Of a stretch of DNA of 64,000 nucleotides, positions 55,970 through 59,300 are shown piece after piece. Positions within the stretch are counted from its first letter, which is position 1. Each line of letters begins with the position of its first letter. The notes below the pieces were generated by a model. That model was given only the letters and a program-made list of their open reading frames with translations, searched no databases and was not told where the DNA came from. Made by a program: the position numbers and the translations under genes. The DNA is from Escherichia coli (lineage in GTDB: Bacteria; Pseudomonadota; Gammaproteobacteria; Enterobacterales; Enterobacteriaceae): NCBI RefSeq assembly GCF_044324785.1, contig NZ_CP172127.1. One strand, given 5' to 3'.

Positions 55970-57253
55970 TTAGTCTTTAGCTGTTGCATTTTGTTTATGA
56001 AACAGTTCACGGAACACCGGATAAATATCATCCTGGTCGCGGATATGCTGCATCGCAAAGTTGTCGAAAGTAGATTGCAGATGCTCATACTCTCGCCACA
56101 GTGTCTGATGAGCGCGACGGGTAATTTCGATATAGCTGTAATAACGAACAAAGGGTAATAATTTTTTCGCCAGGATTTCATGGCAAAGCGGAGAGTCATC
56201 GGCCCAGTTATCGCCGTCCGATGCTTGTGCCGCGTAAATATTCCACTGTGCCGGGTTATAACGCTCTTTCACTACATCATCCATCAGTTTCAGGGCGCTG
56301 GAAACAATGGTGCCGCCAGTTTCCTGCGAGTAGAAAAATTCATGTTCATCGACTTCTTTCGCCTGGGTATGATGGCGGATGTATACGACTTCCACGTTCT
56401 TATACGTTCTGCTAAGGAACAGATACAGCAGAATATAAAAACGCTTAGCCATATCTTTAGTGGACTGATCCATTGAACCCGAAACGTCCATCAGGCAAAA
56501 CATCACTGCCTGGCTGGAGGGATCGGGCCGCTTCTCGTAGTTCTTGTAACGTAAATCGAAGGTGTCAATGAAAGGGACGCGTTCAATTTTGGCACGTAAT
56601 TCTGCAATTTCTTTGCGCAGACGTTCCTCTTCCAGTAGTTGCGCAGGTTCACTGTTGCTGATGATGGCCAAATTTTCTTCCAGCGCATGAAGTTCCCGCC
56701 GCTTGCCCGCCGTCATGGCTGTGCGTCGTGCCAATGAGTTCTGCAATGAACGCACAACACTGATATTGGCCGGAACGCCGTTAGCGGTATAACCCGCACG
56801 ATGCGTTTTATATTCGGTCAGCTGGCGTTGTTGGTTTTGTTTCAGATTCGGTAAGGCCAGATCTTCAAAGAGCAGATCAAGATACTCATCTTTCGAAATC
56901 TGAAAGACAAATTCATCCTGACCTTCACCATCCTGGCTGGCCTGGCCCTGACCACTGCCGGAACCTCCGCCGCCACCCTGGGGACGTTCAATTCGGTCGT
57001 TCTGGACGAAATGGTCATTGCCCGGATGCACGCGGTGGCGCAGACCGCCACGCCCCTGATGAAACATCGGTTCGCTAATATCTTCCGTGGGAATGGATAC
57101 GGACTCGCCGCTGTCGACGTCAGTCACCGAACGCTTATTAATGGCCTCGGAGATCGACTGTTTAATTTGCGCTTTATAACGGCGTAAAAAACGCTGGCGA
57201 TTCACCATGCTTTTGTTTTTGCCGTTCAGACGCCGGTCAATAAACCAGGTCAT
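55970..57253 (-). CDS. yeaH: DUF444 (UPF0229) protein YeaH
   Basis: 427-aa ORF with Gly-rich low-complexity tract ([21 protein letters not shown]); downstream partner of yeaG. Confidence 0.85.
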
Positions 57254-57365
57254 ATGCCCCCCGTACTACATTTGCCAACTGTATGCTACGCCTGTGTTGC
57301 CGCTTCTCTGGCCCACGGTTCGCTGTCGTTGTAGGCCCGGTAGCATGTGTACCGGGCCAGGGTTG

Positions 57366-59300
57366 TTAAGACGATTTACGTACGCGCAAATACCATTCGC
57401 ACAGTAAACGCACCTGTTTACGGGTGTAGCCTTTTTCCATCATACGGTCGACAAAGTCGTCATGTTTCTTCTGCTCGTCGGTTGACGTTTTGGCGTTAAA
57501 CGAAATAACCGGCAACAGCTCCTCGGTATTGGAGAACATTTTCTTCTCAATAACCGTGCGCAGTTTTTCATAGCTGGTCCAGTTCGGATTGCGTCCGCTG
57601 TTATTCGCTCTGGCGCGCAGTACGAAGTTAACAATCTCGTTGCGGAAATCTTTTGGATTACTGATCCCCGCCGGTTTCTCGATTTTCTCCAGCTCGGCGT
57701 TAAGAGACTCGCGGTCAAACAACTGCCCGGTATCCGGATCGCGATACTCCTGATCCTGAATCCAGAAATCCGCGTAGGTAACATAACGGTCGAAAATGTT
57801 TTGCCCATATTCGGAATAGGATTCAAGGTAGGCCGTCTGGATCTCTTTGCCGATAAACTCGGCATATTTCGGGATCAGATAACCTTTCAGGAACTCCAGA
57901 TAGCGTTCTGCCTGCTCTTGCGGGAACTGCTCGCGCTCGATCTGCTGTTCCAGGACGTAGAACAGATGGACCGGGTTTGCCGCCACTTCTACATGATCGA
58001 AGTTGAACACGCGGGAGAGGATCTTAAACGCAAAACGCGTCGACAGACCGTTCATCCCTTCATCGACACCGGCATAGTCACGATATTCCTGATACGACTT
58101 GGCTTTGGGATCGGTGTCTTTCAGACTTTCGCCATCATAAACCCGCATCTTTGAATAAATGCTGGAGTTTTCTGGCTCTTTCAGGCGCGAAAGAATGGAG
58201 AAACGTGACAGTGTTTCCAGCGTGCCAGGGGCGCAGGGGGCGTGAGTCAATTCACTGTGATTAAGCAATTTCTCGTAGATTTTGATCTCTTCGGAAATGC
58301 GCAAGCAATACGGCACCTTCACGATGTAAACACGATCGAGGAAGGCTTCGTTGTTTTTGTTATTACGGAAAGTGACCCATTCGGATTCGTTCGAGTGGGC
58401 GAGAATAATCCCGTTGAACGGCAGGGCGGAGATACCTTCCGTCCCGTTGTAGTTACCTTCCTGAGTGGCGGTTAGCAAGGGATGCAGCACTTTTATCGGT
58501 GCTTTAAACATCTCGACAAATTCCATGATCCCCTGATTGGCGCGGCACAGCGCACCGGAATAGCCGTAGGCGTCCGGGTCATTCTGCGCGTAGTGTTCGA
58601 GTTTACGAATATCGACTTTCCCAACCAGCGCGGAGATGTCCTGGTTGTTCTCATCACCGGGTTCCGTTTTGGCGATAGCAATTTGTTGCAGAATTGACGG
58701 CCAGACCTTCACTACCCGGAACTTAGTGATATCGCCACCAAATTCATGCAGGCGTTTTGCCGCCCACGGCGACATGATGGTGCCGAGATAACGGCGAGGA
58801 ATGCCATACTCTTTTTCCAGAATCTGCGCATCTTCCTGCGGATTGAAAAGACAGAACGGATGATCGTTGACCGGGCTACGCTCACCGTTGGCGCTCAATA
58901 CATAAATCGGTACGAGCTGCATTAATGATTTCAGTCGCTCAGCAAGCGATGATTTACCCCCACCCACAGGCCCCAGCAGATACAGGATTTGTTTCTTCTC
59001 TTCCAGCCCCTGAGCCGCGTGTTTCAGATAAGAGACAATCTGTTCAATCGCGTCTTCCATGCCGTAAAACTCTTCAAACGCCGGATAACGTGCAATGACC
59101 CGGTTAGAAAAGAGTCGAGAAAGTCTGGGTTCCTGGGCTGTATCGACCATGACAGGCTCACCGATAGCCATCAATAGCCGCTCAGCCGCGTTGGCATAAG
59201 CACTGCGATCTTGCCGACAAGTGGTAAGAAACTCCTGCAGTGTGAACTCTTCGTCCTTGGCAGCTTCATATCGCTGGCGATAGTGATCGAATATATTCAT
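57366..59300 (-). CDS. yeaG: PrkA-family serine protein kinase YeaG
   Basis: 644-aa ORF; Walker A P-loop (LLGPVGGGKSSL) near the N-terminus; recognised as YeaG. Confidence 0.9.
   Translation of the reverse strand: MNIFDHYRQRYEAAKDEEFTLQEFLTTCRQDRSAYANAAERLLMAIGEPVMVDTAQEPRLSRLFSNRVIARYPAFEEFYGMEDAIEQIVSYLKHAAQGLEEKKQILYLLGPVGGGKSSLAERLKSLMQLVPIYVLSANGERSPVNDHPFCLFNPQEDAQILEKEYGIPRRYLGTIMSPWAAKRLHEFGGDITKFRVVKVWPSILQQIAIAKTEPGDENNQDISALVGKVDIRKLEHYAQNDPDAYGYSGALCRANQGIMEFVEMFKAPIKVLHPLLTATQEGNYNGTEGISALPFNGIILAHSNESEWVTFRNNKNNEAFLDRVYIVKVPYCLRISEEIKIYEKLLNHSELTHAPCAPGTLETLSRFSILSRLKEPENSSIYSKMRVYDGESLKDTDPKAKSYQEYRDYAGVDEGMNGLSTRFAFKILSRVFNFDHVEVAANPVHLFYVLEQQIEREQFPQEQAERYLEFLKGYLIPKYAEFIGKEIQTAYLESYSEYGQNIFDRYVTYADFWIQDQEYRDPDTGQLFDRESLNAELEKIEKPAGISNPKDFRNEIVNFVLRARANNSGRNPNWTSYEKLRTVIEKKMFSNTEELLPVISFNAKTSTDEQKKHDDFVDRMMEKGYTRKQVRLLCEWYLRVRKSS

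Follow-up and report, generated by a model that had tools for sequence, protein, structure and literature searches.

We analysed a 64,000-nucleotide stretch of Escherichia coli DNA (contig NZ_CP172127.1 of RefSeq assembly GCF_044324785.1; hereafter the window), focusing on two adjacent genes that lie on its minus strand, as do all the window features described below. The coding sequence of yeaG (57366..59300) specifies a protein of 644 amino acids, in which a PrkA-family AAA+ ATPase module is followed by an all-alpha C-terminal domain, while that of yeaH (55970..57253) specifies 427 amino acids arranged as a basic N-terminal tail, a Gly-rich and acidic linker, a long helical hairpin and a C-terminal vWA domain. 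An earlier note on this DNA had singled out the pair as a starvation module consisting of a P-loop kinase of doubtful label and a DUF444 partner, and its identification and delimitation of the two genes agree with the open reading frames and with the curated family matches given below.

A well-known and nearly universal E. coli operon

YeaG matched both Pfam domains of the PrkA family over their full length (AAA_PrkA, PF08298, residues 19-380, E 2e-187; PrkA C-terminal domain, PF06798, residues 382-636, E 1.7e-70) and exceeded the curated cut-off of the NCBIfam model NF011999, named "PrkA family serine protein kinase" (1342 bits, cut-off 576, positions 1-644 of 644), and it thus belongs to this family. 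On the same grounds YeaH belongs to the YeaH/YhbH (DUF444) family, with a full-length match to PF04285 (residues 4-421, E 1.3e-190) and a score of 842 bits against NF003708 (cut-off 466). Of 5426 complete E. coli genomes, 5424 contained the 4-kb yeaGH region at an identity of at least 95%; mipA and cdgI flank it, and RefSeq labels the genes "protein kinase YeaG" and "YeaH/YhbH family protein". Two of the 5430 places at which yeaGH occurs in this collection lie on plasmid-labelled records, and an intact copy is missing from one or two complete genomes out of 5426. PADLOC assigned yeaGH to no defence system, the sole match being to IetA and confined to the P-loop (E 0.007).

The locus is therefore nothing new in itself, being a well-known, fully annotated and near-universal stress operon, and much of its genetics has been published. 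Expression is driven by NtrC/σ54 and by RpoS, and the two genes have been treated as an operon (PMC4664914, PMC10954441). Deletion of yeaG, of yeaH or of both produces the same phenotype, namely a lag that is shorter following 24 h of nitrogen starvation and poorer long-term survival, and complementation fails with the YeaG variants K116A, R232A, K426A and Y382stop (PMC4664914). The SdsR small RNA represses translation of yeaG by pairing at positions -31 to -22 of its 5' untranslated region (5'UTR), both YeaG and YeaH increase in an sdsR deletion strain, and the pair has been termed a "metabolic brake" (PMC10954441). Published work also ties the module to survival of long starvation, lag-phase length, osmotic tolerance and sporulation, and laboratory evolution has targeted it repeatedly. 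Thus, the two genes are functionally linked and the P-loop is essential, two points on which the earlier note had staked its proposal; most of the checks that it suggested, including a phosphoproteome comparison of the yeaG deletion strain with the wild type (PMC8055822), were likewise already in the literature. To this our analysis adds the assignment of YeaH to the vWA/MIDAS proteins, the finding that the "kinase" lysine of YeaG is not conserved, the analogy with AAA+/vWA pairs and the extension of the module to three genes.

YeaG is predicted to join an AAA+ ATPase module to an all-helical C-terminal domain

To assess motif conservation in YeaG we used an alignment of 31 PrkA proteins (25-99% identity), which included phage copies, with diverse sequences drawn from phage records. 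The Walker A motif GPVGGGKS (residues 110-117; 58950..58973), already recognised in the earlier note, lies between strand 105-109 and helix 116-127, and its G110, P111, G113, K116 and S117 are invariant. It is followed by a Walker-B-like strand with an acidic pair, GIMEFVEMFK (residues 257-266; 58503..58532), in which strand 258-262 leads into E263 and both E260 and E263 are invariant. In terms of the hhhhDE consensus, E263 aligns with E115 of RavA and the Asp position is taken by Val262, for which the invariant E260 may stand in. The sensor-1 region IILAHSNESE and the arginine-finger-like NEAFLDR (together 58332..58409) align with "...AASNE...EALYDR" of RavA and contain seven invariant residues (H302, N304, E307, E318, A319, D322 and R323); from these positions in the sequence we infer that N304, which follows strand 298-303, is sensor 1 and that R323 is the arginine finger. 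Further downstream, GMNGLSTRFAFK (residues 415-426; 58023..58058) combines a sensor-2-like G-x-S-x-R with the published "kinase" lysine K426. Its G415, G418, S420 and R422 are invariant, and R422, at the start of helix 421-432, is probably sensor 2.

K426 itself was not conserved, being replaced by Asp in the five most distant PrkA sequences (Thermus phages and a megaphage). It lies four residues, that is one helical turn, past R422, so that the K426A phenotype could reflect a damaged ATPase rather than a lost kinase. Other invariant positions are Q220, D221, G249, N255, G257, K266, Q280, E281 and R372, and those of the C-terminal part include Y506, T524, E541, F552, R553, G569 and G624; no invariant Asp, Lys or His was found between residues 382 and 644.

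The AlphaFold2 model of YeaG (pLDDT 87.6, pTM 0.80) showed the AAA+ alpha/beta core and lid, with the candidate sensor 1 and arginine finger in place as judged by position; its last β-strand is 324-328, and residues 335-643 are entirely helical. In a fold search with this model, every neighbour listed was an AAA+ ATPase, among them LonB, NorQ (value 14.7), NtrX (14.4), CbbQ (14.1), further σ54 activators and ClpB (about 14), and, with lower values, BchI (12.8) and MCM, midasin and McrB (about 11-12), and the top matches contained no kinase or protease domain. Comparison with Pfam gave no match to Pkinase-type profiles even at E<=10, and none to Lon_C. YeaG thus has neither the β-rich N-lobe nor the conserved lysine nor the profile match of a Hanks-type kinase, and its all-alpha C-terminus is without an invariant Lys for the Ser-Lys dyad of a Lon protease. 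The doubt that the earlier note had raised over the kinase label was therefore well placed.

A profile search with the PrkA alignment retrieved PDB entry 9xip at full length (E 6e-164). The next genuine family was RavA (E 4.7e-5), whose match spanned both Walker A and the segment of Walker B, sensor 1 and "EALYDR", unlike those of Lon and FtsH, which were restricted to the surroundings of Walker A. The structures 9xip, 9xiq and 9xir ("Serine protein kinase", 692 amino acids) represent a full-length PrkA homologue that matches over positions 15-638 and retains all the invariant motifs in the profile alignment; its relationship to YeaG is no more than distant (phmmer E 7.5e-51).

YeaH is predicted to be a vWA protein with a complete MIDAS motif

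A search at E<=0.001 retrieved DUF444 proteins in 3384 clusters at the 50%-identity level, from which 107 diverse representatives, 37-59% identical to YeaH, were aligned. In all 107, D256, S258, S260, T315 and D346 are invariant, which amounts to the full MIDAS signature DxSxS...T...D. The corresponding codons lie within 56207..56500 (D256-x-S258-x-S260, 56468..56500; T315, 56303..56323; D346, 56207..56227), and in the AlphaFold2 model (pLDDT 86.4) the residues occupy canonical positions, at the end of beta1, in the loop before helix 317-331 and at the end of strand 337-345. Judged by the modelled alpha/beta Rossmann-like fold, which extends over about residues 232-423 (55985..56560), and by this complete motif, YeaH is a member of the vWA superfamily. 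The structure model and the MIDAS invariance were both needed for the assignment, since a Pfam scan of YeaH returned DUF444 only, with no match to a VWA family; a PDB search by sequence only gave nothing meaningful (best E 0.23). Our literature search found no paper linking YeaH, YhbH or DUF444 to vWA or MIDAS, and one Thermus phage homologue is annotated in GenBank as "vWA domain-containing protein". The description of YeaH as a DUF444 partner thus holds, with the qualification that this DUF has recognisable features of its own in the vWA/MIDAS domain.

Upstream of the vWA domain lies a long helical hairpin (residues 166-225), preceded by a Gly-rich, acidic linker (residues 88-113; 56915..56992). 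Its Gly tract (residues 91-104), also described in the earlier note, is predicted to be disordered on the basis of pLDDT values below 50 at residues 94-106. The N-terminal tail is basic, with 12 Lys/Arg against 3 Asp/Glu in its first 45 residues, and within it D6 is invariant and R7 and R8 nearly so in the DUF444 alignment.

The pair is part of a three-gene module also carried by phages

A yeaG homologue in the same orientation immediately preceded yeaH in 79 of 80 gamma- and betaproteobacterial loci, the exception being cut by the end of its contig. Identity to the E. coli proteins ranged from 76.5 to 99.8% for YeaG and from 56.9 to 98.1% for YeaH. For a stress-response protein YeaG is unusually conserved (84-88% with Vibrio, 77-78% with Pseudomonas and the betaproteobacterium Vogesella), and YeaH diverges much faster at the same loci (70-75% in Vibrio, 57-59% in Pseudomonas and Vogesella).

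In non-enterobacterial loci yeaH was usually followed directly by a gene of the SpoVR family encoding 490-520 amino acids, and distant DUF444 representatives were also found in PrkA-DUF444-SpoVR trios. No SpoVR gene lay within 7 kb of yeaGH in Escherichia, Citrobacter, Enterobacter, Serratia or Dickeya, nor was there one in the window. The SpoVR gene of E. coli K-12 is ycgB (b1188; 1,235,709-1,237,241 of that genome), whose product is 76% identical to the operon-encoded Vibrio protein and whose distance from yeaGH we take to be about 0.6 Mb on the K-12 map. The module therefore comprises three genes, of the yeaG, yeaH and ycgB families, which in most bacteria share one operon, so that the pairing described in the earlier note stands and its two-gene extent does not. 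In fifteen SpoVR proteins that are 20-74% identical, E95, H122-x4-H127, G126, E282, N332-P333-Y334 and D380 are invariant, a pattern that suggests a metal site or active site. A PDB sequence search with SpoVR gave no match, and the family is without a solved structure or known activity.

Trios of PrkA, DUF444 and SpoVR genes were also borne by phages, with all PrkA catalytic motifs intact. Their carriers are jumbo phages, Ralstonia phage RsoM2USA (gp30-28), Thermus phages, megaphages and phage-like metagenomic contigs. In the Thermus phages the order is vWA-SpoVR-PrkA and the trio adjoins the portal and terminase genes, and on the phage-like contigs it is placed among replication genes; all three proteins fall in PHROG families whose function is unknown. 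We considered Enterobacter phage LAU1 (MN688132.1, positions 1-3308) as a further carrier of yeaGH and rejected it, because its copies share 97.7% identity with the E. coli protein and sit at the start of the record beside tail-fibre genes, and thus most likely represent host flank recorded with a prophage.

Relation to Bacillus PrkA and to known AAA+/vWA pairs

Consistently with the wide conservation and the likeness to the Bacillus PrkA/YhbH pair that the earlier note had proposed, the family profiles, the number of DUF444 clusters and the adjacency across loci place the E. coli genes in a broadly distributed system. PrkA, YhbH and SpoVR of Bacillus subtilis belong to the same Pfam families as YeaG, YeaH and YcgB (PF08298 with PF06798, PF04285 and PF04293, respectively), and both systems are induced by starvation or differentiation. 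E. coli, unlike B. subtilis, does not sporulate, and its SpoVR gene has been relocated away from yeaGH. YeaH scored 237 bits against the spore_yhbH model TIGR02877, below the curated cut-off of 468, and is thus a member of a paralogous subfamily rather than the sporulation equivalog.

For comparison with RavA-ViaA, the E. coli K-12 ravA and viaA products were taken from RefSeq and aligned by hhalign with the PrkA and DUF444 profiles. Both systems are stress- or stationary-phase-associated accessory systems, and both have an ATPase gene followed by an adjacent gene for a vWA protein. The PrkA profile aligned YeaG 258-327 with RavA 110-174 (E 2.3e-4, probability 44%), placing E263 on the Walker B Glu115 of RavA and V262 on its Asp114, and the DUF444 profile aligned YeaH 251-337 with ViaA 323-411 (E 4.5e-4, probability 33%), placing DVSGSM on DTSGSM and GGT on GGT, so that both alignments fall on catalytic motifs despite their modest probabilities. 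YeaG differs from RavA by an insertion of about 120 residues between strands 132-137 and 258-262 and by its 260-residue all-alpha C-terminal domain. The LARA domain of RavA and its partner LdcI have no counterpart in YeaGH, which instead has a third partner in SpoVR/YcgB.

A conserved adjacent vWA/MIDAS gene, which characterises the MoxR class, is found beside yeaG in the 79 loci as well as in the distant and phage loci. Compared with NorQ-NorD, CbbQ-CbbO and BchI-BchD, however, YeaG lies outside the Pfam families AAA_5, AAA_3 and Mg_chelatase; by analogy, it would work like the ATPase of a MoxR/vWA pair without being filed as one. In NorQD, a finger of the vWA protein enters the pore of the hexamer and the ATPase remodels the NorD linker, driving metal insertion (PMC13036017).

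Transcription signals and the yeaG-yeaH spacer

Upstream of yeaG, TGGCATGAGAGTTGCT (59404..59419) matches the σ54 consensus TGGCAY-N5-TTGCW for a -24/-12 element. It was the sole match in the window; chance would give 0.29 matches, and at least one was present in 27 of 100 shuffles, so that taken alone this match is not rare by chance. Its position implies a yeaG 5'UTR of about 90 nucleotides, and, consistently with a candidate σ54 promoter, the published 5'UTR reporter starts at -93 (PMC10954441), and both NtrC binding and dependence on NtrC/RpoN have been published (PMC4664914, PMC10954441). The SdsR pairing site, CCTGTGCTAA (59322..59331), corresponds to -31 to -22 of this 5'UTR, its position being taken from the published work (PMC10954441) and its letters from the window. 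A mechanically called open reading frame of 75 amino acids (59297..59524) runs across the promoter and 5'UTR of yeaG and ends in a stop codon that overlaps the yeaG start (ATGA); since the σ54 element lies within it, it is unlikely to be a gene.

The 112-nucleotide spacer between yeaG and yeaH (57254..57365) is single-copy in each E. coli genome and opens with a GC-rich hairpin (57334..57358) with no T-run; a consensus scan of its coding strand found no terminator and no promoter. The spacers of 27 other taxa, 22-202 nucleotides long and unrelated in sequence, have in most cases a strong stem-loop directly after the yeaG stop codon, which is absent from a few short ones (loci L020, L021, L031 and L032). 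As the RNA fold of the whole spacer was no better than that of shuffles (z -0.85), we report the hairpin as a feature recurring across taxa and not as a significant structure. It might set a YeaG:YeaH expression ratio above 1, as an ATPase hexamer paired with one vWA protein would lead one to expect. Five nucleotides past the yeaH stop codon, the scan detected an intrinsic-terminator-like hairpin (55937..55965; 11-bp stem followed by TTTTT). Rfam contained no RNA family matching 55700..59800 at E<=1. The GC content was 0.33-0.37 over 55000..56000, which takes in the 5' part of cdgI (yeaI) together with the intergenic region between cdgI and yeaH, compared with about 0.50-0.52 within yeaGH.

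Discussion

The reading that we favour, with a probability of roughly 60%, is that the products of yeaG, yeaH and ycgB form a MoxR-like AAA+/vWA remodelling machine, in which YeaG is neither a Hanks-type kinase nor a Lon protease. Our analysis shows the identity of the genes, the folds of their domains, the invariance of their motifs and the linkage of the genes; a physical complex of YeaG, YeaH and YcgB, a remodelling activity and a client of that activity are inferred. In such a scheme, starvation, acting through NtrC/σ54 and RpoS, would switch on a single bicistronic yeaG-yeaH mRNA ending at the terminator just past yeaH, and YeaG would assemble into a nucleotide-dependent AAA+ oligomer, binding and hydrolysing ATP through K116, the Walker B-like E260/E263, N304, R323 and probably R422. 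YeaH, as its dedicated partner, would dock on this oligomer, with its MIDAS clamping an acidic side chain on the client or partner protein, and ATP hydrolysis would then pull on the flexible linker or tail of YeaH and so remodel the target, with YcgB as third subunit or client. Remodelling of target proteins in the manner of RavA-ViaA, NorQ-NorD, CbbQ-CbbO and BchI-BchD type pairs would slow metabolism during starvation.

Several observations weigh against this reading. YeaG and YeaH resemble RavA and ViaA weakly, the matches of YeaG to AAA_5 (E 0.11) and Mg_chelatase (E 0.62) are insignificant and limited to Walker A, and YeaG is thus not a MoxR-family protein in the strict sense; the fold search would fit more than one AAA+ clade, with LonB ranking as high as NorQ, and the PrkA family has been placed in the classical AAA+ clade III (PMC13001217). 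Val262 stands in place of the canonical Walker B Asp, and the sensor-2 and arginine-finger assignments are purely positional. A complex of YeaG with YeaH or YcgB is reported neither here nor in the literature that we examined, and a slow, weak, ATP-dependent degradation of casein has been described for B. subtilis PrkA (PMC9512850).

The literature is divided among a kinase, a protease and a non-enzymatic role for PrkA/YeaG, and a preprint of July 2026 still refers to YeaG as a "PrkA-like kinase" and calls YeaH and YcgB uncharacterised. If YeaG were a genuine Ser/Thr kinase of metabolic enzymes such as AceA, active in starvation or carbon shifts, with YeaH and YcgB as regulators or scaffolds, the RefSeq and NCBIfam names would be right, and since P-loop protein kinases such as HprK/P exist, it could use the Walker A site itself. 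In vitro phosphorylation of casein and of YeaG itself has been cited; the phosphoproteome of the yeaG deletion strain differs from that of the wild type, from which AceA was proposed as a substrate, and AceA gave a Phos-tag shift with YeaG in vitro, although only with malate present and with three other candidates negative (PMC8055822). The loss of function of K426A and of the truncation at Y382 in vivo (PMC4664914) is a further point in favour of a kinase. We nevertheless regard a kinase as unlikely, because the fold, the conservation of the motifs and the Bacillus orthologues all contradict it, leaving the in vitro reports on the E. coli protein as its support. B. subtilis PrkA hydrolyses ATP, shows no kinase activity and needs its Walker A lysine in vivo (PMC9512850), and B. 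anthracis PrkA, when highly purified, is active neither as a kinase nor as a protease (PMC13001217). The question of ATPase versus kinase, which the earlier note had proposed to settle, has thus been answered in favour of an ATPase for the Bacillus orthologues, for which alone ATP hydrolysis and nucleotide-dependent oligomerisation are published, whereas the reports on phosphotransfer by E. coli YeaG are positive and conflict with them.

The casein degradation also bears on the view of YeaG as a Lon-like ATP-dependent protease of regulatory proteins with YeaH as its substrate adaptor, which we judge considerably less probable than a kinase. That activity required 24 h, and an earlier protease signal was put down to a contaminating E. 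coli amidohydrolase (PMC13001217); the likeness of YeaG to LonB and Lon proteases is confined to the AAA+ module, with no protease domain or Ser-Lys dyad beyond it. The notion that yeaG and yeaH are mere neighbours, transcribed and functioning independently, could appeal to the stable GC hairpin in the spacer, which might attenuate read-through, and to the published observation that yeaH mRNA is the only transcript altered in a yeaG deletion strain under nitrogen-replete conditions. It is effectively refuted by the published genetics, in which single and double mutants are phenotypically identical (PMC4664914), both proteins rise together without SdsR (PMC10954441) and cofitness exceeds r = 0.7 in six species, and same-strand adjacency in nearly all proteobacterial loci and in phage genomes, together with a spacer devoid of T-run terminator and promoter consensus, leaves it hardly any room.

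The AAA+/vWA remodelling reading has a broader and more tentative extension, which we offer as a conjecture that may well prove wrong: YeaG-YeaH-YcgB would be a distinct class of AAA+/vWA-MIDAS machine, widespread in bacteria and phages, for which "serine kinase" would be a 30-year-old misannotation. The SpoVR protein would be its client or third subunit, possibly a metalloenzyme, as the metal centre suggested by the invariant E95, H122-x4-H127 and E282 would allow, matured or switched by the pair as by NorQD, CbbQO and BchID, and phages might carry the trio to impose or lift metabolic quiescence of the host.

Together, PrkA/YeaG, DUF444/YeaH and SpoVR/YcgB make up one of the uncharacterised stress modules that are most widely conserved. 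If YeaH is viewed as a predicted vWA protein with a MIDAS, and YeaG as a motor of the AAA+ type with MoxR-class ATPases among its nearest folds, the question of what this module does becomes accessible to specific experiments.

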